Positions 5,759 to 19,077 of a stretch of DNA of 39,794 nt are shown here, one piece after another. The position numbers and the translations under genes are program-made. The notes beneath the pieces were generated by a model. The model was not told the origin of the DNA. It made no database searches and was given only the letters and a program-made list of their open reading frames with translations. How positions within the stretch are numbered: position 1 is the first letter of the stretch; every line of letters begins with the position of its first letter. This DNA comes from a virus. The stretch lies in UHGV virus genome UHGV-0220445; one strand, 5' to 3'.

Positions 5759-5867
5759 AAATGACTTTTAATAACCGAAGGTTAGTTTGAAACCTGGCTA
5801 TCAACTTCCAGAACCTTTCTTGTGTATTCAGCCTGTATTAACTTCTTTTATGCCTTATCTACACTGC

Positions 5868-5901: not shown

Positions 5902-5912
5902 GCAGTGAGGAT

Positions 5913-6200: not shown

Positions 6201-6205
6201 AGACT

Positions 6206-6229
6206 AAGGCCACCAATGCTGGTGGCCTT
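6206..6229 (+). repeat. Conserved stem-loop aaggccacc-aatgct-ggtggcctt (copy 2)
   Basis: Perfect 9-bp stem; followed by C-rich G-poor tract 6236-6330. Confidence 0.6.
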
Positions 6230-6330
6230 AAATGACCATCCTGTTTCCCGCAGGCTAAAAACACCAACCTCTTACCTCCAGGCAACCGACAAACCCACCT
6301 GTTCCCGTCCGGCTACCGCAACTTTCCACT

Positions 6331-6389
6331 TTGACGCCTTATTCGTACAACGATAATTAACACCAACAAGAAAACAATATGTTATTTAC
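6331..6389 (+). promoter_or_regulatory. Early promoter TTGACG-15-GATAAT plus leader motif caagaaaacaatatgttatttac
   Basis: Best sigma70-like match among the early promoters. Confidence 0.5.
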
Positions 6390-6404
6390 GATAAGGAATT
6401 AATC

Positions 6405-6887
6405 ATGAATTTTATCGCTACTGTAAACGCACCCGCACATGGCAATATCGCTGTAACGTTCTCTGACATTGAAAAACGAGTACTTGGTGCCTGGCGTCAC
6501 AATGAGACGGTAGAACTGTCAGAACAAGAAAAATGCATTATTGCACGCGACATCATTGGCAATCGTCGTTACTCGCGGGTATTTGAGAAAGCGTATGTGG
6601 TAAATTCTGGGTTCGGAACGTTCGTCTTTCCGGTGCGCTCCGGGCGATTCTGCCAGTCCAAGCTGATTGAGTTCGCTACGCAGATTTCTGTCTGGATTAA
6701 AACTCAATCGTCGTTCAAATTTTCCGACGATGAAGCAGTATCGCAGGGGATGCGGATCGCCAACAATGCGATTAAATGCAAAAACATTACGTATACCGCT
6801 GGCGTTGACACATGGAAACTGTTTTGCGCTAACTTTATGCTGAATGTATACGCAAGCAACCGCATCCACATCCTTGATGGCGTGTAA
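6405..6887 (+). CDS. Hypothetical early protein (160 aa)
   Basis: ORF track; SD aagga upstream. Confidence 0.55.
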   Translation: MNFIATVNAPAHGNIAVTFSDIEKRVLGAWRHNETVELSEQEKCIIARDIIGNRRYSRVFEKAYVVNSGFGTFVFPVRSGRFCQSKLIEFATQISVWIKTQSSFKFSDDEAVSQGMRIANNAIKCKNITYTAGVDTWKLFCANFMLNVYASNRIHILDGV

Positions 6888-6890
6888 CTG

Positions 6891-6920
6891 AGAAGAGGGC
6901 CAGAAACGGCCCTTTCTCTA
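6891..6920 (+). terminator. Putative terminator (agggcc-agaaac-ggccct + TTTCTCT)
   Basis: Stem-loop immediately after stop at 6887. Confidence 0.45.
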
Positions 6921-6936
6921 TAGCCACCAGCTGCCG

Positions 6937-7014
6937 CAGGGAAATTTTCAGAAACGGCGAGGAACGTATTCATGAGCCGACGGGAAACGGCCAGGATTTT
7001 TTCGGGAAACGGCG
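6937..7014 (+). repeat. Second iteron-like array (cagggaaa, cagaaacggcg, cgggaaacggcc, cgggaaacggcg)
   Basis: Same repeat family as 3281-3411. Confidence 0.55.
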
Positions 7015-7436
7015 GGGGTCGCCTTTATGTAGAAAACTGAGCGGGAGAAACCCGGAATCGCGCCAGAAATTGCGTAGCGGCGCTGGGGTATCGCTGGTGG
7101 GGGGGTCAGCCCCTGGGCCATCCAGATAGCTTTCGCTATGTGATTATGTGAATCCGTGGGTAAATCACTGTAAGCGCGTACACGTTGCCCAACGTGGCAA
7201 TCATACGCGAGCGGATACGGAACAAAACAAAATGCCGATCTGCGCCGACAAATAAACGCGGATCACATAGCAAGACTAAAAGCCAATGATTAGCCATACG
7301 TTATAGCGCAATATAACGCATTTTGAGCGCGTTAATGTGTTAAGTAATGGGTATGTACTGGTAAGGATATAAAAGCGCGTCTATGGCGTTATTTTGGCGC
7401 TTATTTTTATGTTGTTGGAGTGAGTCAAAGACAATA

Positions 7437-7466
7437 AAAAAACGCGCCAATGATGGCGCGTTTTGG
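7437..7466. terminator. Bidirectional terminator-like hairpin (A-run, cgcgcca-atga-tggcgcg, T-run)
   Basis: Symmetric A/T tracts around a GC stem, between convergent gene blocks. Confidence 0.55.
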
Positions 7467-7486
7467 TGGGAGTATTGGAAACGAAA

Positions 7487-7507
7487 AAGCGCCCATAGTG
7501 GGCGCTT
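7487..7507 (-). terminator. Hairpin agcgccca-tag-tgggcgct, partial copy of the 37-bp leader repeat
   Basis: Immediately past the stop of 7512..7742; T-rich on minus strand. Confidence 0.5.
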
Positions 7508-7511
7508 GATT

Positions 7512-7742
7512 TTATTTGTGCAAACTGATTTTAAATCCCATTTCTACAAACGCTTTTAGCATTAAAAATATATCAGCGTCATTCACGTCTGCTTTTTTTC
7601 GCTCCTGGTCGCTCAATAAGTCAATTTTGCGCGTCGTTTCATCGATAAACTCGACTGAGCGCCCAGCGTAACCAGCGATCCCAGCGATGCGATTAACAAA
7701 ATATTCATTGCGCACGTTAACGCCAGCGATAAGAATAAACAT
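7512..7742 (-). CDS. Small hypothetical protein (76 aa), paralog A
   Basis: ORF track; N-terminus shares MxIxIxGVN...IAG.AGYA with 7785..8012. Confidence 0.55.
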   Translation of the reverse strand: MFILIAGVNVRNEYFVNRIAGIAGYAGRSVEFIDETTRKIDLLSDQERKKADVNDADIFLMLKAFVEMGFKISLHK

Positions 7743-7776
7743 GATTAAGCTCCTTAAAAGCGCCCATAGTGGGCGC
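7740..7776 (-). repeat. 37-bp perfect direct repeat (start codon + SD + hairpin), copy 1
   Basis: catgattaagctccttaaaagcgcccatagtgggcgc identical at 7740-7776 and 8010-8046. Confidence 0.85.
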
Positions 7777-7784
7777 TATTGTTT

Positions 7785-8012
7785 TTATTTTTCTAAGTGA
7801 ATATTAAAGCCAGCGTTTAAAAATTCTTGAAGCATTAAAGTTACATCAGCTTCATGGATTCCTGCGCGCGCTCTATGTTCTACGTCATTGATGTTTATTT
7901 TAAACGTTGTTTCGTCAACCACTTCAGAACTTAGAGCATACCCAGCTAAACCAGCAATATCATAAACAAGAGTATGATTGTTGATATTTACGCCAGAGAT
8001 GAAAATAACCAT
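7785..8012 (-). CDS. Small hypothetical protein (75 aa), paralog B
   Basis: ORF track; paralogous to 7512..7742. Confidence 0.55.
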   Translation of the reverse strand: MVIFISGVNINNHTLVYDIAGLAGYALSSEVVDETTFKININDVEHRARAGIHEADVTLMLQEFLNAGFNIHLEK

Positions 8013-8046
8013 GATTAAGCTCCTTAAAAGCGCCCATAGTGGGCGC
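8010..8046 (-). repeat. 37-bp perfect direct repeat, copy 2
   Basis: Identical to 7740-7776. Confidence 0.85.
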
Positions 8047-8059
8047 CAGATTCCATTAA

Positions 8060-8710
8060 TTACGCTTTGAAAGCATCAGCCAGATAGTTATAGAAATCAT
8101 TTTTAATAAAGCGATATTGCTGAGTACCAGCTTTCGCGCTCCCAGCTCCTTTGACTTTTTCAACAAGTCCGAGACGTTCGCAAAGATTGATCAACTGGTT
8201 GGCTTGAGTATAGCCAGCGTCCAATTTAATTTCACACGCTTTTTTAGCTTCATTCATTAAATCGAAAACAGCGCCATTAGTGAACGTGTCGATCTCGTCG
8301 TTAATCATATCGATTAAAGCGAATACACGAGATCCGGACATATCAGCGACGGAATAAACACACTTTCCAGCTTTAATGGATTTAACCAGATAAACCAGTT
8401 TTTCCAGAGAATAACTGTTAGTCATTGCATCACGGAAAAAAACTTCTGGCGCTTGTTTGCTTGCTTTGATCGCATAGTAGAAAACAGAGCATAATTTTTC
8501 GTCTTCTACAGCGTTTACAACGTTGTTGATGAAGTAAGCAAGTTTAGTGGTAGCAGCTTGCATATTTGCTTTATCTGCTTTGGTGTGCGTACCATTTTTA
8601 TAATGTTCGTTATATGTTTGAGTTGCCAGATCTGCTTTTTCGCGCAGTTCATCGGATACAATGGAAGCAGCTTCAATGATGGATTTTTTAGAAATGATAA
8701 TGTTAGTCAT
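8060..8710 (-). CDS. Hypothetical protein (216 aa)
   Basis: ORF track; no family recognised. Confidence 0.5.
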   Translation of the reverse strand: MTNIIISKKSIIEAASIVSDELREKADLATQTYNEHYKNGTHTKADKANMQAATTKLAYFINNVVNAVEDEKLCSVFYYAIKASKQAPEVFFRDAMTNSYSLEKLVYLVKSIKAGKCVYSVADMSGSRVFALIDMINDEIDTFTNGAVFDLMNEAKKACEIKLDAGYTQANQLINLCERLGLVEKVKGAGSAKAGTQQYRFIKNDFYNYLADAFKA

Positions 8711-8966
8711 GATAATATCCTTATGAAAGTTTAAAATTTAACTCAAGAAAGAAAGTGTTTTGCACTCGTTCCTGATGCGTTCAATTATCGACACGCGAAA
8801 AAAGATTGCAAGTGTTTTTTTTAATTTTTTGCAGGGACGAAAGTCCTAGAAATAAAAGCGAGATCGTCGAAGGTGTTCCCTAAATAAATAATAAATTCCG
8901 GCTTTTGACCTTATATATTTATACGGGGGAGAATTGAAAGGGTATTAAATGAATGGCATGTAAAAT

Positions 8967-8990
8967 AATAACCGGACTTAGCCGGTTATT
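8967..8990 (-). terminator. Putative terminator hairpin (aataaccgg-acttag-ccggttatt)
   Basis: 9-bp stem just past the stop of 9004..9525. Confidence 0.4.
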
Positions 8991-9003
8991 ACCCTTATAG
9001 AAA

Positions 9004-9525
9004 TTAAAACGGAAGGATTCGTTCAACCCAATCGAAGAAAACAAGTATTTTTCTGCCGTCTTCTAACTTAAGAGTGACCTGGCAAGCATCAACGCCTCTT
9101 GATACCCCTTCTATTTCACGACCGTCTGCCATGTAGACCCTTATAGATTGGTCGTTTTGATAAGCCTTGCGACATATCGCAAAAAAGTCACGACGTGATG
9201 GCTGATTAACCATCTGTTCATTGTTCAGTGTTAGTCGACCTGTGAATGAAGTGTCAACCTCTTCTATGCCTGACTCAATTGTGCTAATGCGCTCAAGAGG
9301 GAGCCTTACACGATTTGTGTTGCTAAACGGATCTGGTGTGAGGTTCAGCTTATTTCTTGCGCTCAACAGCCCGTAGACATACATGCAAAACACTTGGCCG
9401 TCTTCGAGAGTGACTCTTACAGGAAATTTTGCACTCCGCCAGAAGAGCAAGGTGCGCTCAGCATGTTCGTAGTCTCGCGGCCAGACTTCAGCCGGTATGC
9501 CGTAGGTGATGTCCAATGTTTTCAT
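9004..9525 (-). CDS. Hypothetical protein (173 aa)
   Basis: ORF track; start overlaps the stop of the upstream gene. Confidence 0.5.
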   Translation of the reverse strand: MKTLDITYGIPAEVWPRDYEHAERTLLFWRSAKFPVRVTLEDGQVFCMYVYGLLSARNKLNLTPDPFSNTNRVRLPLERISTIESGIEEVDTSFTGRLTLNNEQMVNQPSRRDFFAICRKAYQNDQSIRVYMADGREIEGVSRGVDACQVTLKLEDGRKILVFFDWVERILPF

Positions 9526-10115
9526 TCTGATACTCTTAGAGGTGTTTTCAGCAACCCAAATTTAAATTCTTTGTTACCAACGACAAAGAAGGGAACCTCA
9601 ACATAGATTTTTTTATCGACGGATTTAGAGTTCGCTGTTTTCTGTATGTCACGAACGATACGTTTTGAGGTATTTTCATCGATAAACAATACCTTTCCAC
9701 TTGTATTCCCTTCAGCCTTGGCGTAAGTAACGATAGGGTCTTCATTGCCAACCCTAATGTTTACTTGGCAACCTGTTGTAGCCATTTCATCACAGTAAAG
9801 TGTGCCGTCTTGAACTTCTAAAACAATTCCAGATGGCTTCATGGCTTCGTCAGAGCTTACATTAACGTTTTCTGGTACAGCGGTCCCGTTAATTTGCAAC
9901 CGTAATCTTTCTTTTCCTGCATTAAGTATTGTTTCTTCTGCGTTATCTGAGAATCTGAACCAGACTGGTTGAATCAGACCTCGTGATTCGTATTTTAGTA
10001 CGTCTTCAGAAGTATACATGCTGTACGTTTTTTGCATGTCGGAGACGATATCTGACAACGCATTTGCGGAAAATGACGAGAGGTATATACAAGCAAGAAG
10101 TAACGAACGTTTCAT
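9522..10115 (-). CDS. Secreted/periplasmic protein with N-terminal signal peptide (197 aa)
   Basis: N-terminus MKRSLLLACIYLSSFSANA: basic n-region, hydrophobic core, AxA cleavage motif. Confidence 0.55.
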   Translation of the reverse strand: MKRSLLLACIYLSSFSANALSDIVSDMQKTYSMYTSEDVLKYESRGLIQPVWFRFSDNAEETILNAGKERLRLQINGTAVPENVNVSSDEAMKPSGIVLEVQDGTLYCDEMATTGCQVNIRVGNEDPIVTYAKAEGNTSGKVLFIDENTSKRIVRDIQKTANSKSVDKKIYVEVPFFVVGNKEFKFGLLKTPLRVSE

Positions 10116-10200
10116 TTTTATACAGCGATTATTGCAAAGTAGAATTATAAATATCCAATAGTCTCAAACGATAAGTTTTCAACTGTAAATAGCAGACGTG

Positions 10201-10240
10201 TTTCTCTAAAAGCTGTGCGGCAAAGGCGTTGTTGCCGCAC
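10201..10240 (-). terminator. Intrinsic terminator on minus strand (gtgcggcaa / ttgccgcac stem + AGCTTTT)
   Basis: 9-bp stem followed by T-run on minus strand. Confidence 0.5.
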
Positions 10241-10295
10241 TCTGTCTATTAGCTCTTCAAGTCTGGCAATTCTGAAATTGACTAAGAATCCAATA

Positions 10296-10574
10296 TTACG
10301 GCAGTTTGCTTAGAATTTGCTCTAAATCTTCCTTTGTCATATTAGAGTTCTCATAGATGCGCATGATTTTCTCACGAGCCTTAGCAGAGACTCCAACGGC
10401 AGATGAAACTTTGTCAAATTCAGCCATTGTCATCGCTTCCAGAATGGTATTGATAACTTCAGCCTTAGACATTTTGATGTTTTTTTCTTTTAGTTTCATT
10501 TGAAACTTTCCAAGTTTGTCATTGGCCTTATCGGACAATGCCACCTGACAATAAGTTGTTTTCTTTTCGCTCAT
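10296..10574 (-). CDS. Hypothetical protein (92 aa), translationally coupled to helicase
   Basis: ORF track; starts 2 nt after the helicase stop. Confidence 0.45.
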   Translation of the reverse strand: MSEKKTTYCQVALSDKANDKLGKFQMKLKEKNIKMSKAEVINTILEAMTMAEFDKVSSAVGVSAKAREKIMRIYENSNMTKEDLEQILSKLP

Positions 10575-10576
10575 AA

Positions 10577-12136
10577 CTAATCTCGTTTCAGAACTCCAAA
10601 ATCGAATGCGCCATCAATAGGCAATACACCTTCTGCAAAGCCAGGTGTGGTGTCGATGATGTGTTTTCGCTCATAAGAGTGAGACAACAGGTATTTGTTG
10701 CTAATGTCAATGAAATCAGTGATAAAACACACGTTTGCCTGATTCTTCTTGGCTCGTAAGCCACGACCGACACGCTGCCTCATTTCAACTTCTGCTTTCC
10801 CACCACCAGCCAGAATGACCGCACCAACGCTTGGCACATCAACACCGACATCCAGAATAGTCGAGCCTATTAAAACATCTATTTCGCCAGACGCTAAACT
10901 GTTCAGCTTTGCTTGCCTTGTCGCCTGGTTCGATTCCCCATAGATGAAGTCAACTCTAAGGCCGGACTCCTTCATCATCTCCATCAGGATTTGCCCGTGG
11001 CGTTTAAGACGAACCAGAGTCATGCAATTGAGAGAATGTTGCTTATAGAGCAATGCTTCGCGCACAATGGCCTCGTTACGTCCCAAATTATACACGATCC
11101 CCAACTGATAAGCCTTTTGGTAGGCTGTGCTCATACCTACTCTAAAATTAAGGTGTTTGTTGGCAAGTTCCGCCTTGATTCTGACCTCGTCTGGCTTGTA
11201 AGCAACTTTATGATAAAGGAAGTACGGTTTTGCCAGAATGCCTCGATCAATCAGGTACTTTTCTGTGACTTTAATTTCAATTCGACCGGCCACAGCCATC
11301 AGACGCATGTTGGCTTCTGTAGAATCCTTCATGAACGGCGTGGCCGTAAGCGCCAGACGATAGTCTGCGTTCACACATAATCTGGCAATGTCATAGAAAT
11401 TAGAGCCTGAAGACTCATGCGCTTCTTCCAGAATAAGCAGAGACACACTTGAAAGGAAGCGTTTCACTAGCTCCCGACGTTTGAGGTGGTAGCTTTTCTT
11501 ATCTGGTGTCGCATCGCGTGGTGGTTCTTCGAGGAAACTTGCAAGAGTTTGAACTGTAGCGACGTTGATATGTCGTGATACCTGGAACTCACCCGAGCCA
11601 ATGACTCCAACCTTTTGGTCTTTTAACCACGGTTCGCCATTTTCGGCGCGGTAGTCGATGGATCTCTGGAAGTTTTCGGCCATTTGAAACATCAGAACAG
11701 AGCGGGTTGTTAAAAATAATGTCATTCGACCGATACGTGCAGCTGCTTTGCAGGCAACGTTAGATTTCCCGCCACCAGTAGCGATCTGCGCAATCATCAT
11801 TCCCTCTCGAACCAGTGTTTCCACAGTCTGATCCTGATACGCATAATCAGGATTGTATGGGAATGGGTTAACCGCCGGATTTGGTTTACCAAGCGCCGGG
11901 GCTTTGTCTTTGCGGATATGAACACATTTGATGCCCGCCTTGTTCAAGTTCGCCGCTACAGGCTTGGCAAAGCCAGCAGGGAACGAGTTTTTACTCCAGT
12001 TGAACATCGTGCTTGTGCCCTTCCAGTCGCCAGTCTCGACTTCGTAGCTCAACATTTGCTGCACCAGTTGCTTTACCTTGTCATCTGCGCCAGAAATAAG
12101 CGCATTTACTGCGTTAGATACAATCCGAACAGTCAT
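10577..12136 (-). CDS. Superfamily-2 DNA/RNA helicase (DEAH-like)
   Basis: Motif I AQIATGGGKS, motif II LILEEAH, motif III TATP, motif VI QRVGRGLR. Confidence 0.8.
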   Translation of the reverse strand: MTVRIVSNAVNALISGADDKVKQLVQQMLSYEVETGDWKGTSTMFNWSKNSFPAGFAKPVAANLNKAGIKCVHIRKDKAPALGKPNPAVNPFPYNPDYAYQDQTVETLVREGMMIAQIATGGGKSNVACKAAARIGRMTLFLTTRSVLMFQMAENFQRSIDYRAENGEPWLKDQKVGVIGSGEFQVSRHINVATVQTLASFLEEPPRDATPDKKSYHLKRRELVKRFLSSVSLLILEEAHESSGSNFYDIARLCVNADYRLALTATPFMKDSTEANMRLMAVAGRIEIKVTEKYLIDRGILAKPYFLYHKVAYKPDEVRIKAELANKHLNFRVGMSTAYQKAYQLGIVYNLGRNEAIVREALLYKQHSLNCMTLVRLKRHGQILMEMMKESGLRVDFIYGESNQATRQAKLNSLASGEIDVLIGSTILDVGVDVPSVGAVILAGGGKAEVEMRQRVGRGLRAKKNQANVCFITDFIDISNKYLLSHSYERKHIIDTTPGFAEGVLPIDGAFDFGVLKRD

Positions 12137-12182
12137 AAACCTCTTTCCTTAGTGCCTTTTGTATGTTATTTGGCTATTATAA

Positions 12183-12200
12183 TAAGTAAGTGATTACTTA
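12183..12200. promoter_or_regulatory. Palindrome TAAGTAA-gtga-TTACTTA in the 64-bp divergent intergenic region
   Basis: Late-type palindrome family. Confidence 0.45.
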
Positions 12201-12218
12201 GTGGATTGTAGCAATAAA

Positions 12219-12899
12219 ATGGATGTAAAAATCACGATTTTGCAGGTTGATGTTGCCAACCTTCGCCCGAATACCTGGAACACCAATTCGGTTGGTGCGC
12301 AGAATTTTGAAAAACTGAAAGGTTCTATCGAAAAATTGGGCTTTTTTAAGCCAATTTTGGCTCGTGAACTTGAAGATGGATTTTTTGAAATCCTCGGCGG
12401 CGAACATCGCTGGCGTGCTGCTATTGAGCAAGGAATTTCAACGGTTCCGGTGCTTTCTGTGGGCAAAATTAGCGATGTCGTAGCTAAACAGATGTCACTG
12501 GTGGACAACGAGCGATACGGTGAAGACGACCAAATCGCATTGCAACGCTTCATTGAAGAAATTCAGTCAGAACTTGACTATCAACTGTCTGAAATCGCCC
12601 CGTATGACGACGAAATCTCGATGGTTTTAGCAAAAGAGGCGGCAATCGACCTTGAAGCACTGGAGGCGTTGTCTCGTGGTAGTGATGAGCCTGTCGATAC
12701 CGACAAACGAGAGAAAACCGAACGTGTGGGTGCGGAACATCAGACCATGCGCTTCAAAGTAACTTTCGATGCGTCAGATCGTGTTGCAGAAACCATAAAA
12801 AACATCATCAAAGAGCAGGCTATTAACACCGGTAATGAAATGGAGAACGCTGGTGAGGCTCTGGTGTGGCTGGTCGACTACTACAAGGAGCGTATGTAA
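12219..12899 (+). CDS. ParB/Srx-fold (ParB N-terminal domain-like) protein
   Basis: ParB box-like motif ILGGEHRWRAA; ORF track 12201..12899 (GTG); ATG 12219 chosen. Confidence 0.6.
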   Translation: MDVKITILQVDVANLRPNTWNTNSVGAQNFEKLKGSIEKLGFFKPILARELEDGFFEILGGEHRWRAAIEQGISTVPVLSVGKISDVVAKQMSLVDNERYGEDDQIALQRFIEEIQSELDYQLSEIAPYDDEISMVLAKEAAIDLEALEALSRGSDEPVDTDKREKTERVGAEHQTMRFKVTFDASDRVAETIKNIIKEQAINTGNEMENAGEALVWLVDYYKERM

Positions 12900-13567
12900 T
12901 GACCAAAAAGTTTGAAATCGTATATCGCGACCCGGCAGATCTTATTCCCTATGAGATGAATGCCAAAAAGCATGATGAACAGCAGATCCGAGATCTGGCC
13001 GCAGCCATTAAAAAGCGCGGATTTGACCAGCCAATTACGGTCGATAAGAACGACGTAATTATTACTGGCCACGGCCGCCGTGAGGCTGCAATTTTTGCTG
13101 GACTTGAGCGCGTGCCGGTTATTGTTCGCGATGATCTGAGTGATGACGAGGTACGTGCAAAGCGCCTTGAAGATAACCGACTTGCCAGCATTGATTACGA
13201 TGCAATTAAGCTACAGAAAGAGCTTGAGTCGCTTGTTCTGGACGATATCGAGGTTTTCGGCTTCGAAGAGCGTGAGTTGAATGTTCTCGTTGGCAGTATG
13301 ACAGAAGAAATGGACACCGACTCGCTAGTTATCGATCTTGGCGAAGAAACTAAACGACAGAAGGATGAACACACCGAGATCAGTCGTGAAGTTGCAGCGG
13401 AAGAAGTACGTGTTGTCGACGTATTGGGCTTTAAAACGCTCCCTGCTGGCTCTGCCATTGTTGTTGGTGATTTGCTTGCCCATATGGAAGAAATGACGGG
13501 AGAAAGCGGGGTAGACGCATTTGTGGCATATGCGGAGAAGATCTCTTCCGGGGAGATGGCTGCATGA
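12899..13567 (+). CDS. Second ParB/Srx-fold protein (paralog)
   Basis: Motif ITGHGRREAA; ATG overlaps upstream stop (ATGTAATG). Confidence 0.6.
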   Translation: MTKKFEIVYRDPADLIPYEMNAKKHDEQQIRDLAAAIKKRGFDQPITVDKNDVIITGHGRREAAIFAGLERVPVIVRDDLSDDEVRAKRLEDNRLASIDYDAIKLQKELESLVLDDIEVFGFEERELNVLVGSMTEEMDTDSLVIDLGEETKRQKDEHTEISREVAAEEVRVVDVLGFKTLPAGSAIVVGDLLAHMEEMTGESGVDAFVAYAEKISSGEMAA

Positions 13568-14229
13568 GCAAATACATCATCAACGTATCGTTTCAGACAC
13601 GCGTAAATAAAACCACGCGCACGTTGGAAATCGCTGAGTCGTTCGGGCTTGGCCTGGACGAAAAAGAGTGGACGCTTTACGACAATCTGGAGCTGGAAGT
13701 GAAGCAGGGCGATGTGGTGTACATCACCGGCCAATCCGGTTCCGGCAAATCCGTTGTGCTGCGCGAGTTGCAACGACAGATGAAGGATGAAGGGCTGTCT
13801 GTAGCCTCCATCGATGATTTTACCTTCGATAATGAGGTTAACGTCATCGATCAGTTGGGCAAAACGACCAGTGATGCGCTTGGGTTGTTATCTATGGCTG
13901 GTCTGAACGATGCATATCTGTTTGTTCGCAAGCCTTCTGAAATGTCAGACGGCCAGAAATATCGTCTCAAGATTGCCAAACTGATTGAGTCAGGCGCTAA
14001 AGTATGGGCTGCTGACGAGTTCGGCGCTGTTCTCGACCGTGTAACCGCTCAGGTTGTGGCGTCTAACCTCCAGCGTGCCGCTCGAAAGGTTGGTGCGACG
14101 GTAATGGTGGCGACGACTCACGAAGACCTGAAGAACGCGCTGCGCCCTGATATGCAGATCACCAAGCACTACAAAGAACGCGTGAAGGTGGAATATCACA
14201 ATGGTAGTCATGATGAGGTCCATTCATGA
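13564..14229 (+). CDS. ABC-type ATPase, nucleotide-binding domain only (221 aa)
   Basis: Walker A GQSGSGKS, signature-like MSDGQKYR, Walker B VWAADE, H-loop ATTHE; ATGA overlap upstream. Confidence 0.65.
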   Translation: MSKYIINVSFQTRVNKTTRTLEIAESFGLGLDEKEWTLYDNLELEVKQGDVVYITGQSGSGKSVVLRELQRQMKDEGLSVASIDDFTFDNEVNVIDQLGKTTSDALGLLSMAGLNDAYLFVRKPSEMSDGQKYRLKIAKLIESGAKVWAADEFGAVLDRVTAQVVASNLQRAARKVGATVMVATTHEDLKNALRPDMQITKHYKERVKVEYHNGSHDEVHS

Positions 14230-15116
14230 CGGACATCATCATTAAACGCTACCGCCCTGAAGAGTTTCCGCGTCATCTGGACTTTCTGGAGCGAATGACT
14301 GTTACAAAGGGAACTGTAGAGGACTGGCACGCTCTTAAGTCGCTTCACTACAAAACAGACGGCAAACCTTTCGCGCCAACTTACTATCGCTGCGAACTTG
14401 ATGACCGTCTGGTGGGCGTCGTGGTTATGGCTTACCCGAAACTACTGTTGGCACCTCGCCACCGCATGTTTCCTAAGTTGAAACCAACCACTAATACCAC
14501 CGTGGCTAACCAGTACTGGGGTCGGTACGTGAATAACAACTTTGCGGTGATCAGTCGCTCAGTTGTGGATACTCAGTATCGTGGCGTAGGCGTCTCTTAT
14601 CGAATGATTAACCTGGTTAGCAGGATGCATGACCGGCCAATCATTGAGATCCAGTCCTCGATGAGCAAATACAATCCCTTCGCCATGAAAGCAGGGTTTA
14701 AGTTCATCCGCCCTGAGCGACCGAAGAGCTATGAAAGTGCACTGCGTGTGTTCCAGCGCCATTTCCGCTCCGACCCGGGTGATAACGAGGCGATCGTTAA
14801 AGAGTTGTTCGCTATGAGCGAGTCTCGTCGTCGCCGTGCACTGCGTGATCTGGTGGCGGACTACCACAAGAACAGTTCCCTGGCAAAAGCAGGGCGGAAT
14901 CGTGGCACGACGATTCAGGACATTGCCGACAGTCTGGTGGACGAGGCCAGCATTGTGAAGCTGCTCAAGGACATTCACAACCTGAGCTTTACGTCTCCGT
15001 TGTATGGTGTGTACCGAAACCCTGACTTTGGCCGTCGACTGCCTGAAACGCTGCCACTGCTGGCATTCGACAAACAACCTTTGGATAAACCGTTAGAAAT
15101 TGCTTTACCGGCATAA
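14226..15116 (+). CDS. Hypothetical protein with possible GNAT-like acyltransferase core (296 aa)
   Basis: Pattern VGVVVMAY ... FAVISRSVVDTQYRGVGVSYRMINLV resembles the GNAT acyl-CoA binding motif; tentative. Confidence 0.35.
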   Translation: MTDIIIKRYRPEEFPRHLDFLERMTVTKGTVEDWHALKSLHYKTDGKPFAPTYYRCELDDRLVGVVVMAYPKLLLAPRHRMFPKLKPTTNTTVANQYWGRYVNNNFAVISRSVVDTQYRGVGVSYRMINLVSRMHDRPIIEIQSSMSKYNPFAMKAGFKFIRPERPKSYESALRVFQRHFRSDPGDNEAIVKELFAMSESRRRRALRDLVADYHKNSSLAKAGRNRGTTIQDIADSLVDEASIVKLLKDIHNLSFTSPLYGVYRNPDFGRRLPETLPLLAFDKQPLDKPLEIALPA

Positions 15117-15125
15117 GGATTTGCC

Positions 15126-15392
15126 ATGACGTTAACCGATAAACAAAAGGACATCATCAAAACGCTCAATCTCGGTTATGAGCGAGGTCATCTACTTGAC
15201 CTGGACGAATTGCTTGAAGTTTTGCCGTACAAGACAACCAAGCAAAGTATCCAGTTCTCAATTCGCGCTCTGATAAAAAAGGGGCTGGTGGAGAAAGGGC
15301 ATACGCGCCAACGCAGTGACAATCGCTATCACCGCCGGACTCTTGGGTTAACCACTTTAGGTCGAGCCAAAGCGAAGTTACTGGTGATGTAA
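15126..15392 (+). CDS. Small basic protein, possible winged-helix DNA binder (88 aa)
   Basis: ORF track; size and charge only. Confidence 0.35.
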   Translation: MTLTDKQKDIIKTLNLGYERGHLLDLDELLEVLPYKTTKQSIQFSIRALIKKGLVEKGHTRQRSDNRYHRRTLGLTTLGRAKAKLLVM

Positions 15393-15416: not shown

Positions 15417-15471
15417 CCTGCTTCTGTATATATAAATAATAAGTAACTTATTAAATATATACGGAAGCAGG
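15417..15471. repeat. ~55-bp imperfect AT-rich palindrome with GC clamps (cctgcttc ... gaagcagg)
   Basis: Core aataagtaacttatt belongs to the late-type palindrome family; ~115 bp upstream of terminase small subunit. Confidence 0.7.
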
Positions 15472-15505: not shown

Positions 15506-15569
15506 CAGAAAACAAGTTGGTTAGCAGATGCAGTAAACAAGTTGTTTTAGAGCGCATGGACGCGCTCTG
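15506..15569 (+). promoter_or_regulatory. Two copies of early-type motif (gaaaacaagttggtt, gtaaacaagttgtttta) followed by hairpin agagcgc-atggac-gcgctct
   Basis: Sequence pattern directly upstream of 15588 start. Confidence 0.4.
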
Positions 15570-15587: not shown

Positions 15588-16220
15588 ATGACGGTCGAAA
15601 AAGACGAGGTAAAAACTCGCCTGACACCAGCGGAGTGGGCCGAAGCTGAAGCCAAATGGACGTCAGGCGAATATACACTCTCAAAGCTGGAGGAAGAGTA
15701 CGGCATTCGTCGTGAAACACTCTCCAGACATTTCAAAAAGCGAGGATTAGAGAAAGGCGCGGACTCTGTTGGGAAGATGGTTCGTGAGTCTCTTAAATCT
15801 GACGCAGAGCTTCGCGCTAAAGCCCGTGCGGAAAAGATAGAAGAACGTCGTACACGTTATGACGGCTGGGCGTATGCGTTGGGGCAGATGGTGATGGTCG
15901 AAGTCACTACGGCCAAACGTGAGGGTAAGCCTTTAGGGGCGATTGAGGATTCTCTCAAGAGCTTACAGAGAGCCAGTAATACCCTTGCAAAATGCTTTGA
16001 AGTTTCGTCCAAAGCATTGGGCATGGATCATGCGGAAAATGACGAGGAAGAAATTCCGAACCTGGTATTTGGTGAGCTTACGCCTTCCCAGGTGGCGAAA
16101 TTACGTCAGGAAGACGACGAGCCTGAAATCATCGATGACGAATTGCTTGAGACGTTAGAAGAAGAAGCTCTAAGCGAATTTGATGCGACAGATGATGGAA
16201 GTGAAGGGGAGGACGAATAA
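15588..16220 (+). CDS. Putative terminase small subunit
   Basis: Directly upstream of and overlapping the large terminase; HTH-like N-terminus, acidic C-terminal tail. Confidence 0.5.
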   Translation: MTVEKDEVKTRLTPAEWAEAEAKWTSGEYTLSKLEEEYGIRRETLSRHFKKRGLEKGADSVGKMVRESLKSDAELRAKARAEKIEERRTRYDGWAYALGQMVMVEVTTAKREGKPLGAIEDSLKSLQRASNTLAKCFEVSSKALGMDHAENDEEEIPNLVFGELTPSQVAKLRQEDDEPEIIDDELLETLEEEALSEFDATDDGSEGEDE

Positions 16221-17476
16221 TGGCAATCCCGTCCTCGCTCAGTCTTGTGCAACTGCATTCTGGACAGATGAAAGTCTTCCAGTCTCCGCATCGATTTAAA
16301 GTTGTTTGTGCTGGTCGACGCTGGGGAAAATCCCGGTTGTCGATCTCCACTATTATTCGTGCGGCGGCAAAGGAAAAAAAGCAAAGAGTCTGGTATGTCG
16401 CTCCTACTTACCAGATGGCTCGCCAGATTTTGTGGGACGATCTACAGGAAGTTCTGCCTCGTAAGTGGGTTAGGAAAAAGAACGACACCACGATGACAAT
16501 CGTGTTGAAGAACGGTTCGGAGATCGCCCTCAAAGGTGCTGATAAGCCTGACACTCTGCGCGGCGTAGCGTTGCATTTTGTAGTGCTTGATGAATTTCAG
16601 GATATGAAGGCTGACACCTGGTACAAGGTGTTACGACCTACTCTTTCATCGACACGCGGCGGTGCACTGATCATTGGTACGCCAAAAGGCTTCTCGGAAT
16701 TTCACAAACTGTGGACTATAGGCCAGAACGTAGAGCTGCAAAGAAAGGGACAGTGGAAGAGCTGGCAGTTTGTAACTGCCGATTCTCCGTTTGTACCTAC
16801 GGCGGAAATTGAAGCTGCTAAGAACGATATGGACCCGAAATCGTTCGCTCAGGAGTACCTGGCGAGCTTTGAGAACATGTCCGGGCGCGTTTACTACCCG
16901 TTCGATCGTAACGTGCATGTAAAACCGCTTCAGTTCAACCCTCGGTTGCCTATATGGGTAGGGCAGGACTTCAACATTGACCCGATGTCTTCAGTAATTT
17001 TGCAACCTCAGCCAAATGGTGAGCTATGGGCAATTGATGAATTGGTGCTCTTTTCCTCTAACACGGCAGAGGTTTGTGATGAGCTTGAGAGACGCTTCTG
17101 GCGCTGGAAATCACAGATAACGGTATTTCCAGATCCGGCAGGTGCTTATCGCCAACATGCTCGCGGGGAGTCTGACGTCGACATATTCAAAGAGAAGGGA
17201 TTCTTACGTGTCGATTATTCGAAAAAGCACCCGCCAATTGCGGATCGTGTTAATGCTGTTAACCGAATGCTGATGACCGCATCTGGAGATATCCGGCTGT
17301 ATATCGATCCGAAGTGCAAGCATTTGATTGATTCACTGGAAAAAGTCATCTACAAGCCTGGAACACGAGATATGGATAAGACAGGTGGCATTGAGCATAG
17401 TGCAGACGCATTGGGCTATCCAGTACATCGTAGGTATCCAGTCAAAAACCGTGTTATTCTTGGTGGTTCTCGATAG
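16220..17476 (+). CDS. Terminase large subunit
   Basis: Walker A VVCAGRRWGKS, Walker B FVVLDEFQD; followed by portal. Confidence 0.85.
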   Translation: MAIPSSLSLVQLHSGQMKVFQSPHRFKVVCAGRRWGKSRLSISTIIRAAAKEKKQRVWYVAPTYQMARQILWDDLQEVLPRKWVRKKNDTTMTIVLKNGSEIALKGADKPDTLRGVALHFVVLDEFQDMKADTWYKVLRPTLSSTRGGALIIGTPKGFSEFHKLWTIGQNVELQRKGQWKSWQFVTADSPFVPTAEIEAAKNDMDPKSFAQEYLASFENMSGRVYYPFDRNVHVKPLQFNPRLPIWVGQDFNIDPMSSVILQPQPNGELWAIDELVLFSSNTAEVCDELERRFWRWKSQITVFPDPAGAYRQHARGESDVDIFKEKGFLRVDYSKKHPPIADRVNAVNRMLMTASGDIRLYIDPKCKHLIDSLEKVIYKPGTRDMDKTGGIEHSADALGYPVHRRYPVKNRVILGGSR

Positions 17477-17502: not shown

Positions 17503-19077
17503 ATGGAATTGAACGACAAACAAATTAAGGATCTGGTGGCGCGACGCCACCCGGAATACGAAAAGAAAAAAGAACATTGGGACTTCCTCGCCAGCACTTA
17601 CGCTGGCGGGCGTGGTTGGTTTACAGACAATATCTTTCGTTACTTTAAAGAGGGAGATCAGGAGTTTAAGGAGCGAGTTGAACGTGCTTATCGCTTCAAC
17701 CACACTCGTGAGGTGGTAAACCTCATCAACAAATATCTCTTTAAAGAAGACATTCATAGAAATATCGAAGAGGCACCAGAGCAGATCCGCAATTTCTGGA
17801 AACGTGCGACTCGCCAGAATGCCTCTATTGACTCATTTATGGCCGCTATTGATTTGCAGTCGTCTATTTACGGTCGCATATGGGTTGTTGTCGATAGCAC
17901 GATGAGTGGTGATGTTGAGTCAGTAGCTGACGAGAAAAAGAAAGATGCTCGCGCCTACGCCTACTGGATTTCACCTCAGCAAATGCTGGATGTGGCATGG
18001 GACGACGACGGGAATATGTTGTGGGCGTTAATTGTGGAAGTCGCTCGTGATGACGCAGATCCTTTTACTTCTACAGGTCAGGAATACCAACGTTATCGTC
18101 TGTGGACACAAAACGAGTGGTATCTGTTCCGTGAGGAAGTGAAGAAGGGCGCTGGTGGAGCAGGTCGCCGTCAGGCAAAAGTTATTTTAGAGGATAGCGG
18201 TGAGCATAATCTCGGCGTAGTTCCTGTGTTTCCTGTTGATTGTATTGGAGAAAGTGAATCACCGTATTTCAGCCCATCGTTGATCGATGATATCGCTTAT
18301 CTTGATCGTGCGGTTGCAAACTATCTGTCAAACCTTGATGCCATTATTCAGGATCAGACATTTAGCCAGTTGGCTATACCGGTACAGTCGCTTTTACCTG
18401 GTGATGAAAACCACACTAAAGTGCTTGAAATGGGCACAAAGCGAGTCTTCACCTACGATTCTGAAGGCGGAAACCAGCCGTTTTATCTGTCACCAGACCC
18501 GAAACAAGCTCAGATGATCATCACTACGATTAAGACGGTGATTAACGAAATCTACCATTCAGTTGGTGTAGCTGGTGAGCGAACGAAGCAGGACAACGCA
18601 CAGGGAATCGATAATTCATCTGGTGCCGCAAAAATGTATGACTTCCAGCGTGTAAATAGCTTGCTTGTCACAAAAGCAGAGCGTCTGGAAAGGGCTGAAC
18701 GCCAAATCATGCTACTGGTTGCGAAATGGATGGGGGCAGATCTGGACGAAGACCACTCTTTAATTGCGTATCCAGAAAGTTTCGATATTCGTGGCCTTAC
18801 TGATGAATTTTCTGTTGCCGAGAAACTGTCATTACTTCAGGCACCGGACTCTGTACGTCGTCACCAGATGGAAATGCTTATTGAGAAGATTTTCCCGAAC
18901 ATTACTGAGGCGATGAAAAAGGAATTTGATAAAGATCTCTTGAATTTTCCTCCAAAAAATGATCTAAATACCCTTGAAAATAAGTCAGTACTTACTTATG
19001 ATCGTGGTACGGCCCAAGAAAGCGGGCAAGATCAACCCCGAGGGAATGGGGACTCATCTACTCAAGAGAACGAGTGA
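17503..19077 (+). CDS. Portal protein (524 aa)
   Basis: Size and position between terminase and scaffold. Confidence 0.7.
   Translation: MELNDKQIKDLVARRHPEYEKKKEHWDFLASTYAGGRGWFTDNIFRYFKEGDQEFKERVERAYRFNHTREVVNLINKYLFKEDIHRNIEEAPEQIRNFWKRATRQNASIDSFMAAIDLQSSIYGRIWVVVDSTMSGDVESVADEKKKDARAYAYWISPQQMLDVAWDDDGNMLWALIVEVARDDADPFTSTGQEYQRYRLWTQNEWYLFREEVKKGAGGAGRRQAKVILEDSGEHNLGVVPVFPVDCIGESESPYFSPSLIDDIAYLDRAVANYLSNLDAIIQDQTFSQLAIPVQSLLPGDENHTKVLEMGTKRVFTYDSEGGNQPFYLSPDPKQAQMIITTIKTVINEIYHSVGVAGERTKQDNAQGIDNSSGAAKMYDFQRVNSLLVTKAERLERAERQIMLLVAKWMGADLDEDHSLIAYPESFDIRGLTDEFSVAEKLSLLQAPDSVRRHQMEMLIEKIFPNITEAMKKEFDKDLLNFPPKNDLNTLENKSVLTYDRGTAQESGQDQPRGNGDSSTQENE

Follow-up and report, generated by a model that had tools for sequence, protein, structure and literature searches.

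A late phage operon beside the terminase genes encodes a predicted split ATP-driven acyltransferase with two ParB-like partners

What does a phage do with an ATPase, a GNAT-fold protein and two ParB-like proteins encoded together just ahead of its terminase genes? This question is raised by the virus genome UHGV-0220445, a stretch of 39,794 nucleotides (here, the window) whose source is an SSU5/Cyrano-type Escherichia coli phage-plasmid. Five genes in one orientation occupy positions 12201 to 15392, four of them translationally coupled, and they lie between a divergent helicase gene and the TerS and TerL genes. The order within the operon is ParB1, ParB2, ABC ATPase, GNAT-fold protein and a basic 88-amino-acid (aa) protein, here called ORF5. 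The locus contains the following features.

10577-12136, minus strand: UvsW/SF2-type helicase (Pfam ResIII, DEAD and Helicase_C)
12176-12181, plus strand: −10-like TATAAT, preceding the palindrome in the region upstream of ParB1
12183-12200, plus strand: 18-bp palindrome TAAGTAA-GTGA-TTACTTA, directly upstream of ParB1
12201-12899, plus strand: ParB1, GTG start, 232 aa (226 aa from the in-frame ATG at 12219)
12899-13567, plus strand: ParB2, 222 aa, TAATG overlap with ParB1 at 12897-12901
13564-14229, plus strand: ABC ATPase, 221 aa, ATGA overlap at 13564-13567
14226-15116, plus strand: GNAT-fold protein, 296 aa, pI 9.8, ATGA overlap at 14226-14229
15126-15392, plus strand: ORF5, 88 aa, basic, pI 10.2
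15417-15471, no strand assigned: large AT-rich inverted repeat between ORF5 and the TerS-like gene, closing the operon
15548-15569: terminator-like hairpin that follows the inverted repeat
15588-16220, plus strand: TerS-like protein, 210 aa (phrog_867, E = 2e-100)
16220-17476, plus strand: TerL, the large terminase, whose homologues in relatives carry Terminase_6N

The four open reading frames with overlapping stop and start codons that an earlier note on this DNA had described are all present, as is each motif that it quoted (GGEHRWRAA, GHGRREAA, GQSGSGKS, SDGQ, VWAADE and TTHE). The first overlap, TAATG, does lie at 12897 to 12901, but the full string ATGTAATG spans 12894 to 12901, so the note contained a small coordinate slip. 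For ParB1, the Cyrano record uses the ATG at 12219 as the start codon and the SSU5 record uses 12201. The reading of the locus as a coupled operon is supported, its products being two members of the ParB family, a soluble ABC ATPase of minimal size, a protein with a GNAT fold and a small basic protein. The operon also resists placement in a known module, as had been claimed: PHROGs, Pfam, NCBIfam and PADLOC yield generic names only, and our literature search found no paper describing the module. An ordinary adenine methyltransferase is also encoded elsewhere in the phage. The operon is genuine, late and uncharacterised, and its core is a predicted split ATP-driven acyltransferase with two ParB-like partners.

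The ABC motifs are not chance matches, as the ATPase scores 50.1 bits against ABC_tran, twice the cut-off of 25. It has a Walker A motif (GQSGSGKS), a signature (MSDGQ), a Walker B motif (VWAADE), a D-loop (LDR) and an H-loop (TTHE), and it belongs to the transporter-type NBD class rather than to the DNA-handling SMC/Rad50/MutS/UvrA classes, without OLD/Rad50-type inserts. We rejected the identity of an ABC transporter. No transmembrane-strength hydrophobic segment was found in any operon protein. The GNAT protein consists of a GNAT fold (residues ∼20 to 165) with an intact CoA loop (R119-G-V-G122-V-S) and a C-terminal, mainly helical domain of ∼130 aa. When its profile was used for searching, 70 of 148 cluster representatives (50% identity) had the same ABC subfamily at the N terminus (E values down to 1e-63), and among the distant homologues, about half consist of one ABC-GNAT fusion protein of ∼480 aa. 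When the ABC and GNAT sequences are concatenated, they can be aligned over their full length with 29 fusions (28 to 34% identity). The pair and the fusions have in common an invariant set of motifs, namely Walker A, LSDGQ, DEF..LDR, the H-loop, HY(K/R), R-G-x-G and Glu141, and the CoA loop and Glu141 are invariant in more than 2,000 homologues. AF2 models one fused homologue confidently as one unit (pLDDT, 88.7; pTM, 0.80).

These comparisons establish that the ABC ATPase and the GNAT protein together make up a single enzyme, here split into two translationally coupled genes, and that its ATP-binding, ATP-hydrolysis and CoA-binding motifs are, as judged from the alignments, intact and invariant. 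That the two genes are halves of one conserved enzyme is a new observation. The functional partner of the ATPase is the GNAT protein and not the ParB proteins, a relationship that the earlier note missed; roughly half of the family members have the two on the same polypeptide. The junction between the two genes is an insertion hotspot in relatives. Rare fusions of the enzyme to PolB, Gins51_C and TFIIB were also seen, and one ATPase contains an intein.

The fusions are of the MK0520 type, which we take to be COG2401. JGI labels the homologues “ABC-type ATPase with predicted acetyltransferase domain,” the name also used in the Cyrano record; literature searches with COG2401, MK0520 and this descriptive name found no paper on the family. 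The fusions have the same domain order (ABC NBD, GNAT and helical tail) and share all catalytic motifs with the window pair, the difference being that the enzyme here is encoded by two genes with a 4-nt overlap. Other soluble, nontransport ABC modules power enzymes (PhnK/PhnL in C-P lyase, component A2 in the methyl-coenzyme M reductase activation complex, and SufC/SMS), but these have no GNAT fusion and are nonviral, and what similarity they show is that of NBD folds in general.

In Foldseek searches, the best matches to the 296-aa protein were TmcA, NAT10 and Kre33, with alignments of 300 to 380 columns that reach beyond the GNAT core and TM-scores of ∼0.3; no sequence similarity to these three was detectable. 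These ATP-dependent RNA cytidine N4-acetyltransferases likewise combine a P-loop NTPase, a GNAT domain and a C-terminal substrate-binding domain, but their NTPase is of the helicase type instead of ABC, their substrate is RNA and they serve cellular housekeeping, not a virus. The Mom protein of phage Mu, a late-made, anti-restriction DNA adenine modifier with a GNAT fold, differs in having neither an ATPase or ParB partner nor terminase linkage, and its structural similarity does not stand out from that of many unrelated GNATs.

The characterised GNATs that match about equally well are mostly protein or small-amine acetyltransferases (Naa10, RimI, HP0935 and Pat), which speaks for an alternative in which the enzyme acetylates a packaging or nucleoid protein (TerS, TerL, the portal, the ParB partners or a host HU/Alba-type protein) and thereby switches the DNA from replication or transcription to packaging. 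Translational coupling to TerL would be in keeping with a protein that modifies the packaging motor stoichiometrically, and the acetylation of the ABC-type head of Smc3 by Eco1 illustrates that a GNAT can regulate an ABC ATPase. Furthermore, the two phage GNAT families described by Iyer et al. (2017) were assigned to a RimI-like, protein-modifying clade, a placement that favours a protein acceptor and counts against DNA. We nevertheless regard a protein acceptor as unlikely. The GNAT protein has no sequence affinity to any protein-acetyltransferase family (Pfam GNAT matches are below the cut-off, and a profile search of PDB sequences came back empty), and the invariant R78 and R111 near the predicted acceptor side would fit a phosphate-bearing substrate. 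This alternative also leaves unexplained the ParB/Srx partners, the likeness of ParB2 to a methyltransferase-associated module and the PolB/GINS fusions.

The ParB motifs are likewise no coincidence, with ParB_N scores of 49.9 and 35.2 bits for the two proteins against a cut-off of 26.3. Both are acidic, have the ParB/Srx fold and are paralogues of each other (33% identity over 116 aa; E = 6e-10). ParB1, with the box GGEHRWRAA (Pfam ParB_N, E = 3e-13; phrog_723, E = 2e-79), aligns with the Spo0J/ParB/Noc N-domain (GEHRWRAA versus GERRYRAA) and falls under the NCBIfam parB_part cut-off (43 versus 58 bits). It has N-P-x-N-P-N and G-x-HR motifs in common with the solo ParB partners of fused ABC-GNAT genes (loci L009, L091 and L093). 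ParB2, with the box GHGRREAA (Pfam ParB_N, E = 1e-8; phrog_930, E = 1e-112), matches phrog_498 “DNA methyltransferase” (E = 2e-31; profile positions 31 to 179 of 633) and PADLOC MTase_II PDLC03229 (E = 3e-17). By these profile matches, which cover the first ∼150 residues of the fusions, ParB2 resembles the N-terminal module of phage ParB-methyltransferase fusions (phrog_498, PDLC03229 and Bce_0392-type), where a ParB/Srx module is combined with a DNA-modifying enzyme, as here. ParB/Srx proteins accompany DNA-modifying enzymes in several known cases (DpdB with DpdA, DndB, and ParB-methylase [PMC12839542; PMC5512222]), and DpdB, which we liken to the present proteins by description, is a ParB-like ATPase required for preQ0 insertion into DNA by DpdA (PMC12839542). 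The present locus differs in having two separate ParB paralogues and in that the catalytic partner is ABC-GNAT instead of a methyltransferase or transglycosylase.

The names in PHROG and GenBank read “ParB-like partition protein,” and Pfeifer et al. (2021) listed two ParB copies as partition genes in a related Acinetobacter group of phage-plasmids, both in line with a plasmid partition system of two ParB centromere binders and an unusual ATPase. We rejected this reading, to which we assign next to no probability: neither ParB protein reaches the NCBIfam cut-off for partition ParB, and there is no ParA gene next to them. The MinD/ParA-like gene of Cyrano lies ∼15 kb away and is lysogen expressed, whereas the operon is not listed as expressed. 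Moreover, one provirus within a 3.3-Mb contig has the module too, as do archaeal proviruses, for which partition is not needed.

Throughout the SSU5-like lineage, the gene after GNAT is that of ORF5 (phrog_900, E = 2e-45), a position kept in 47 loci. ORF5 is probably a winged-helix DNA binder, a tentative fold assignment drawn from weak profile matches (Sta1/Lrs14, E = 0.003 to 0.004; LexA_DNA_bind, E = 0.07; C-terminal region of PADLOC CARF3, E = 4.5e-5). Upstream of ParB1, the −10 hexamer and palindrome (12176 to 12200) form a probable lineage-specific late promoter/operator. The same palindrome type recurs at 18981 to 18998 and 37896 to 37913, each time after a −10-like hexamer, and in Chitinibacter and Ectothiorhodospira relatives, ATAAGTMA-N4-TKACTTAT palindromes are found at the corresponding site and also precede TerS, portal and capsid genes. 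That the element is met again ahead of other late genes, in this phage as well as in distant relatives, fits the suggested co-regulation with structural genes. The operon is not among the Cyrano genes reported as lysogen expressed (PMC9928086). The inverted repeat at 15417 to 15471, with outer arms of 17 nt (94% complementarity) and inner arms of 16 nt (88%), contains the ends of both the SSU5 and Cyrano GenBank records and could serve as a terminator or as a cos/pac element, or combine the two.

All SSU5-like loci with sufficient flank, down to 43% aa identity, have the order helicase, ParB, ParB, ABC, GNAT, wHTH, TerS, TerL and portal; the divergent helicase is the left neighbour wherever the upstream flank suffices, and the same order is found in Proteobacteria from Ectothiorhodospira to E. 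coli. Synteny in related phages is therefore strictly kept, and the operon is a fixed syntenic core of a deep phage lineage, not a variable accessory island. Such strict synteny and deep conservation are unlike fast-turnover counter-defence genes, which weighs against cargo of the phage P1 Dar type, i.e., proteins that are produced late, packaged in the capsid and delivered along with the DNA to block host restriction or other immunity. The location of late genes beside virion genes would agree with such cargo, as would the anti-restriction role that had been proposed, and phage “polyvalent” proteins predicted to be injected contain ParB-like and GNAT domains, with a ParB-like domain also in P1 DdrB (PMC5512222). 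However, the operon proteins are without capsid-targeting or protease domains, and in a comparison that included neither the DdrB-type domain nor P1 DdrB, the ParB domains were nearest to chromosomal ParB/Noc and ParB-methyltransferase modules. We consider this cargo role improbable.

The pairing of an ABC ATPase with ParB-family, potentially nuclease, proteins had also invited analogy with immunity pairs such as Septu (PtuAB), PARIS (AriAB) and OLD. In these, as in Gabija, an ATPase gene likewise sits beside a potential nuclease gene; borne by a plasmid prophage, such a pair would exclude other phages. An SSU5-like Klebsiella plasmid does reduce lytic-phage plating, an effect that its authors credit to a restriction-modification system (PMC8969562). 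PADLOC called no system: the PtuA matches are limited to Walker A (E = 4e-4 or worse), and AriA, OLD and Gabija are not matched. The NBD is of another class, its true partner is a GNAT domain, and the operon is a fixed, terminase-linked part of the late region, not among the lysogen-expressed genes of Cyrano. An immunity pair is largely refuted and highly improbable; of the functions proposed earlier, the defence-pair analogy is unsupported, whereas DNA modification or packaging is favoured by the comparative data.

All contexts examined were tailed phages, proviruses or IMG/VR viral contigs, with one exception (a Gemmata locus surrounded by cellular genes). In 22 of 35 fused loci, and in the Bathyarchaeia-type provirus L175, the distance between TerL and the fused gene is no more than 1.2 kb; in IMG/VR contigs and an archaeal provirus, the fused gene directly follows TerL, often with a 4-nt overlap. 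Overlap with the stop codon of TerL is frequent for the fused gene in proviruses of Nitrososphaerota, Bathyarchaeia and Aigarchaeota, and fused homologues from metagenome-assembled genomes (MAGs) of these three groups had tail, connector or terminase neighbours in each of the four contexts examined. Four separate lineages, among them a Thaumarchaeota MAG and a Planctomycetota MAG, have a neighbouring ParB_N gene. The enzyme is virus borne, with genetic linkage to the large terminase and, in many cases, to a ParB/Srx protein. Both the terminase linkage and the restriction to tailed (pro)viruses are first observed in the present analysis; the earlier note had missed the terminase link across bacterial and archaeal viruses.

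TerL adjacency in several lineages, together with the position of the operon immediately upstream of TerS/TerL and beside the inverted repeat where the SSU5 and Cyrano records are cut, could also point to an accessory of packaging initiation. In that case, ParB1 and ParB2 (with ORF5) would recognise, and perhaps nick, a site near cos/pac, and ABC-GNAT would act mainly as an ATP-driven terminase clamp or adaptor with the GNAT domain as a ligand sensor, not a transferase. Accessory packaging nucleases have a precedent in the HNH nucleases that adjoin terminases in HK97-like phages, and in some archaeal proviruses the gene after the fused one encodes another nuclease (SNase or PLD-type). Some proteins with a ParB domain nick DNA without sequence specificity (PMC5512222). 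We judge this accessory role, taken as a whole, to be unlikely, as the invariant CoA loop and Glu141 argue for true catalysis, a separate TerS-like gene is already there, and in an SPbeta-like phage the gene is located in the replication module, far from the packaging genes.

The explanation that we tentatively prefer, while holding it short of probable, is that phage DNA receives an acyl group before it is packaged, in an ATP-gated and ParB-assisted transfer with a logic like that of TmcA/NAT10 and an outcome like that of Mom. The late-expressed acyltransferase would act on the phage's own DNA, or on nucleoprotein awaiting packaging, at the hand-over from replication to packaging. ATP binding would close two ABC heads into a sandwich dimer and bring two modules of GNAT and C-terminal domain onto the substrate; the GNAT domain would then move an acyl group from acyl-CoA to an amino group, most likely the exocyclic amine of a DNA base, and ATP hydrolysis would reset the enzyme, as in P-loop-ATPase-plus-GNAT enzymes. 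The two ParB/Srx proteins would bind DNA and deliver it to the enzyme, possibly as NTP-dependent clamps or nickases (compare ParB-methyltransferase fusions and DpdB), and the basic wHTH protein would contribute site recognition or regulation.

Acyl transfer to DNA is favoured by the equivalence of split and fused forms, the TmcA-like Foldseek matches, the linkage to terminase and ParB, the match of ParB2 to a methyltransferase-fusion module, the published cases of ParB/Srx proteins beside DNA-modifying enzymes, the PolB, Gins51_C and TFIIB fusions and the SPbeta-like replication context. Late expression, as suggested by the shared palindromic promoter element and the absence from the lysogen-expressed Cyrano gene list, also counts in its favour. 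Besides the RimI-like placement, the transporter-type NBD, which is not of a DNA-handling class, and the phage's ordinary adenine methyltransferase count against it. Our literature search yielded no report that the DNA of SSU5-like phages is modified. Most of the archaeal loci examined are without ParB, so this protein cannot be a universal means of DNA targeting.

Given that bacterial and archaeal tailed viruses alike have this enzyme beside the terminase, its role is probably to mark viral DNA for packaging or make it ready for that step. If acyl transfer to DNA is indeed its function, the DNA would be marked before it enters the capsid and would thus be shielded from host nucleases.

An earlier note had picked out, between the helicase and terminase genes, a coupled operon that it did not recognise, and all five ORFs, their stop/start overlaps and the quoted motifs were found where it placed them. 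The overlap of ParB1 and ParB2 is TAATG at 12897-12901, but the longer string given for it, ATGTAATG, begins at 12894. ATGA overlaps follow at 13564-13567 and 14226-14229, and the start of ParB1 may be read as GTG 12201 (SSU5 record) or ATG 12219 (Cyrano record). The genes and the elements around them are as follows.

10577-12136, minus strand: helicase
12201-12899, plus strand: ParB1
12899-13567, plus strand: ParB2
13564-14229, plus strand: ABC ATPase
14226-15116, plus strand: GNAT protein, 296 aa
15126-15392, plus strand: ORF5, 88 aa
15417-15471: nested large inverted repeat between ORF5 and TerS, inside which the SSU5 and Cyrano GenBank records end
15509-15569: second inverted repeat, AAAACAAGTTGGTTA / TAAACAAGTTGTTTT, then a terminator-like hairpin
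15588-16220: TerS-like gene
16220-17476: TerL

Over 12183-15392, identity is 99.1% to Escherichia phage Cyrano, which is pLF82, an SSU5-like phage-plasmid in E. coli LF82, and 85% to genes 125-130 of Salmonella phage SSU5. In PLSDB, the operon is present at ≥80% identity in nearly all of 772 plasmids, among them plasmids of Klebsiella (307), Escherichia (218), Enterobacter (91), Yersinia (62) and Salmonella (49); the Yersinia and Salmonella records presumably include the pMT1 and pHCM2 lineages. The SSU5 and Cyrano records name the five products, in order, "ParB protein," "ParB-like nuclease domain containing protein," "ABC transporter," [quoted passage not shown] and "DNA binding domain containing protein"; further records label the genes just as hypothetical. 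ORF5 is basic (pI 10.2), with weak winged-helix matches. Cyrano carries a second "ABC transporter ATP-binding protein" gene elsewhere (CYRAN_75; OV696614, 74621-75265), among ThyX, DHFR, polynucleotide kinase and exonuclease genes.

Judged from their sequences, the ABC ATPase and the GNAT protein are two halves of one predicted enzyme. A search with the ABC ATPase returned near-identical enterobacterial copies only. Among 1.84 billion cluster representatives, a profile built from 34 homologues of the 296-aa protein detected 878 relatives (E ≤ 0.001). In 70 of the 148 best new representatives, the N-terminal part is a full-length match to the ABC ATPase of the window (E down to 1e-63), and the concatenated window pair aligns end to end with 29 fusions of ~480 aa at 28-34% identity. 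Across this alignment, the Walker A, LSDGQ signature, Walker B/DEF, LDR D-loop and H-loop motifs are invariant in the ABC half, and HY(K/R), Arg78, Arg111, the R-G-x-G CoA loop (Arg119, Gly122), Glu141 and Tyr260 in the GNAT half. These patterns show an intact ABC ATPase and an intact-looking GNAT, joined either physically or by translational coupling. The pair is thus a split form of the "ABC-type ATPase fused to predicted acetyltransferase" (MK0520 type), as the source names agree; many homologues are labelled "ABC-type ATPase with predicted acetyltransferase domain" by JGI. We take this fused family to be COG2401.

The ABC half belongs to the ABC ATPase superfamily (PF00005; ABC_tran, 50.1 bits, above the Pfam cut-off), with Walker A, Q/signature, Walker B with catalytic Glu, D-loop and H-loop. 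The earlier note had suggested a possible GNAT core in the 296-aa protein and a Foldseek comparison; the GNAT fold is now assigned, with TmcA/NAT10 as the top matches, at the level of structure and not of sequence homology (E = 2e-5; TM, ~0.3). The acyl-CoA pyrophosphate loop (R/Q-x-x-G-x-G/A) reads R119-G-V-G122-V-S in the window, and CoA binding is predicted; in alignments A1, A2 and A4 the R and G are invariant, with G, A or S in last place. No curated GNAT model scored above threshold for the 296-aa protein (Acetyltransf_10, E = 0.037; 14.5 bits against a cut-off of 23.6), NCBIfam gave nothing, and single and profile searches of PDB sequences gave chance matches only; among the fused relatives, some do match Acetyltransf_1, _7 or _10. 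TmcA/NAT10 membership itself (DUF1726, helicase-type ATPase, GNAT and tRNA-binding parts) was rejected, as the ATPase here is ABC-type and there is no sequence match, yet GNAT plus tail show a structural resemblance, and the enzyme may function in a similar way.

The junction between the two halves, a 4-nt overlap in the window (14226-14229), is an insertion hotspot in relatives, where the median gap is 433 nt and the largest 1.8 kb. The inserts are small unrelated ORFs (homologue loci L002, 8013-8267; L004, 6961-7999; L058, 8648-10483); SSU5 has an additional 84-aa ORF there, and an Ectothiorhodospira prophage has Phage_gp49_66 and RyR-domain ORFs.

Both upstream genes encode ParB/Srx superfamily proteins: ParB_N (PF02195) scores 49.9 bits for ParB1 and 35.2 bits for ParB2 against a cut-off of 26.3, so that neither these motifs nor those of the ABC ATPase are chance matches. 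As paralogues, the two share 33% identity across 116 aa (E = 6e-10). In the arginine-rich box, ParB1 GEHRWRAA aligns with Spo0J GERRYRAA, and ParB2 GHGRREAA lies in register. With regard to CTP binding and hydrolysis and parS-dependent clamp loading, ParB1 retains G-E-x-R-x-R-A-A and a downstream Asn, and in ParB2 the GERR arginines are missing in register. Phage ParB-methyltransferases have an N-terminal module that ParB2 matches (E = 2e-31). That these proteins serve plasmid partition we consider extremely unlikely. Both score 43 bits with the partition model TIGR00180 (cut-off, 58.45), no ParA lies within the operon, and integrated proviruses carry the module too. In Cyrano, the MinD/ParA-like gene is ~15 kb away and is listed as lysogen-expressed, with CYRAN_119-123 unlisted (PMC9928086).

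The earlier note had likened the ATPase and ParB proteins to ATPase-nuclease defence pairs, an analogy that did not survive. PADLOC matches to PtuA (E = 4e-4 to 2e-2) are confined to the P-loop. The operon gave no AriA, AriB, GajA or OLD match, nor did its GNAT protein or ORF5 match anything relevant. As a Septu, PARIS, OLD or Gabija pair, the operon would have the wrong NBD class, and the partner of its ATPase is a GNAT; Septu/PARIS-like defence is accordingly very improbable. That the products are instead injected as Dar-like counter-defence cargo we regard as distinctly unlikely. Two further identities were rejected. An ABC transporter would need a permease, and the operon and its neighbours lack any segment of transmembrane strength (maximum KD19, 1.46-1.59), with all NCBIfam transporter equivalogs far below their cut-offs. 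As for a small terminase, the five proteins have no TerS-family match beyond the P-loop (phrog_800, E = 0.002, to the ATPase), and a separate TerS-like gene lies downstream.

The gene order is conserved across SSU5-like relatives, a point on which the earlier note had proposed a check. Locus markers were mapped by jackhmmer over all ORFs, and the order helicase (minus strand), ParB, ParB, ABC, GNAT, wHTH, TerS, TerL, portal was seen in all loci with enough flank. Of the 55 split-form loci, 29 have the full set of eight markers and 47 have both ParB genes, with the shortfalls at contig ends. This conservation reaches down to 43% amino acid identity and includes contigs from Ectothiorhodospira, Chitinibacter, a Sphingomonadales MAG, a Tara record and a 3.3-Mb contig. 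In a second lineage, abundant in IMG/VR, the gene is fused and TerL lies ≤1.2 kb away in 22 of 35 loci; at least eight of these show a 4-nt overlap between TerL stop and fused-gene start. Jackhmmer with the window ParBs found no ParB in this fused-after-TerL lineage, a search that a more divergent ParB or other partners could escape. The IMG/VR loci are not phylogenetically independent, and these linkages are consistent patterns rather than statistics.

A profile search yielded at least 2,252 homologues at E ≤ 1e-20, mostly of 480-500 aa; where a source is named, it is a Nitrososphaerota, Bathyarchaeia, Aigarchaeota or Thermoproteota MAG. Virus-type neighbours were present in all four archaeal chromosomal contexts examined: in one, the enzyme gene comes after genes for a tail tube, an HK97-gp10-like protein and terminase; two have large genes ahead of it (one with a YQBQ Pfam match, of tail type) and an SNase gene behind it, after which host-type genes begin; and in one, it adjoins a head-tail connector gene and a PLD-type nuclease gene. 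An SNase or PLD-type nuclease takes the place of ParB/Srx after the fused gene in Nitrososphaerota and Aigarchaeota proviruses (L171, L173, L174 [8473-8970]; L172 [9673-10257]), and the different nuclease-like partners may be interchangeable. ParB_N directly follows the enzyme in a Sedimentisphaerales MAG (E = 2e-10) and in a prophage-like JGI metagenome contig (CI-type repressor, then terminase, portal-like and capsid genes), and a Thaumarchaeota MAG has the order fused gene, ParB_N (E = 4e-10), 156-aa ORF, Terminase_6N. Elsewhere, the fused gene lies among DnaB, DHH and gyrase genes in the replication module of an SPbeta-like phage, and one Gemmata copy lies among cytochrome genes. Putative single-cluster fusions join ABC-GNAT to PolB (two), Gins51_C and a TFIIB repeat, and a LAGLIDADG intein lies inside one ATPase (distant homologues P0205, P0180, P0191, P0156 and P0166). 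A scan of genome contigs, which is not a census, gave 7 true family members among the 80 matches listed, the remainder being ordinary ABC transporters. Together, these occurrences show that the ABC-GNAT enzyme is virus-borne, terminase-linked and often ParB-linked.

An 18-bp palindrome, TAAGTAA-N4-TTACTTA, occurs three times in the window (12183-12200, 18981-18998 and 37896-37913), each time after a −10-like hexamer and just upstream of a late gene or operon. In the Chitinibacter (L095) and Ectothiorhodospira (L004) relatives, palindromes of related form, ATAAGTMA-N4-TKACTTAT, occupy equivalent positions, and the element is probably the late promoter/operator of the lineage. Adjoining the helicase gene is a gene for a 92-aa protein (phrog_1466; 10296-10574, minus strand) with a weak "transcriptional repressor" PHROG match, which may regulate the divergent late promoter. 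Unlike the operon, its orthologue in Cyrano (CYRAN_117) is listed for the lysogen, at 12-fold above the local background (PMC9928086). The nested repeat at 15417-15471 may be cos/pac, or merely the chosen zero point of the records. That the operon serves as an accessory to packaging initiation, with ParB as binder or nickase, we think unlikely. Farther upstream, ~850 nt at 2230-3090 have no ORF of ≥90 aa and are A+C-rich with extreme strand bias (GC skew of −0.35 and AT skew of +0.29 at 2001-3000). Rfam found no family across the whole window, this stretch included, and Tandem Repeats Finder found no tandem repeat in 1-12200.

What the enzyme might do can be outlined from its parts. ATP would drive dimerisation of the ABC heads, placing two GNAT modules on the substrate, and an acyl group would pass to it from acyl-CoA. 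We tentatively favour DNA as this substrate, for several reasons: the nearest precedent for a P-loop ATPase with a GNAT and a tail is TmcA/NAT10, also the top Foldseek match; the GNAT fold is able to modify DNA, as in Mom; ParB/Srx modules recurrently accompany DNA modifiers; the PolB, GINS and TFIIB fusions and the SPbeta-like replication-module location point to DNA transactions; and coupling to TerL suits the marking of DNA right before encapsidation. Among ParB precedents, DpdB is a ParB-like ATPase acting with DpdA (PMC12839542), and ParB-methylase and Dnd links have been discussed (PMC5512222). However, structure favours TmcA, NAT10 or Mom only slightly over ordinary GNATs, the NBD lies outside the DNA-handling classes, most archaeal loci lack ParB, and no modified base has been reported for SSU5-like phages. 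The enzyme could instead acetylate packaging or nucleoid proteins, which would make it a regulatory switch on the packaging motor; this seems to us somewhat unlikely. The fuller form of the DNA reading, in which ABC-GNAT is a categorically new, ATP-driven DNA acyltransferase that acylates (e.g., acetylates) bases of the viral genome at hand-over to terminase, is a real if minor possibility. On the favoured reading, with DNA as the substrate, the operon would be akin to ParB-assisted nucleic-acid modification enzymes and ATPase-coupled GNATs.

The core claim of the earlier note, an unrecognised coupled operon deserving tests, therefore stands, and its interpretation is in part kept and sharpened: defence aside, the unit is an ABC-GNAT enzyme with ParB partners in a DNA-packaging context. 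Each domain family is already known, and the fused ABC-acetyltransferase architecture is labelled in databases. The literature searched, with the ABC-ATPase classification of Krishnan et al. (2020) outside its coverage, held no description of the module or of the family's function, virus restriction, or terminase or ParB linkage, and no paper naming a writer of acylated DNA bases. The labels "ABC transporter" and "ParB partition protein" mislead and are spreading through phage-plasmid studies; one published screen, for instance, used an SSU5 parB as a marker gene.

The core enzyme has >2,000 homologues, many in archaeal proviruses and none functionally characterised. The module is widespread, deeply conserved, medically adjacent through enterobacterial phage-plasmids and experimentally tractable: SSU5 plates on Salmonella, and Cyrano is ciprofloxacin-inducible. 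Structural and packaging proteins aside, modules with a catalytic function are rarely tied to terminase in tailed viruses of bacteria as well as archaea, and the linkage across both domains suggests an old, overlooked step of the virus cycle. If the viral DNA is modified, the enzyme would be a candidate writer for acylated DNA bases and would offer a new explanation for the resistance of some phage DNA to restriction or to sequencing-based calling. DNA acylation, if true, would amount to a chemically new class of virus DNA modification whose writer is identified, conserved from tailed viruses of Thaumarchaeota and Bathyarchaeia to the SSU5/pHCM2/pMT1 phage-plasmids in Enterobacteriaceae.
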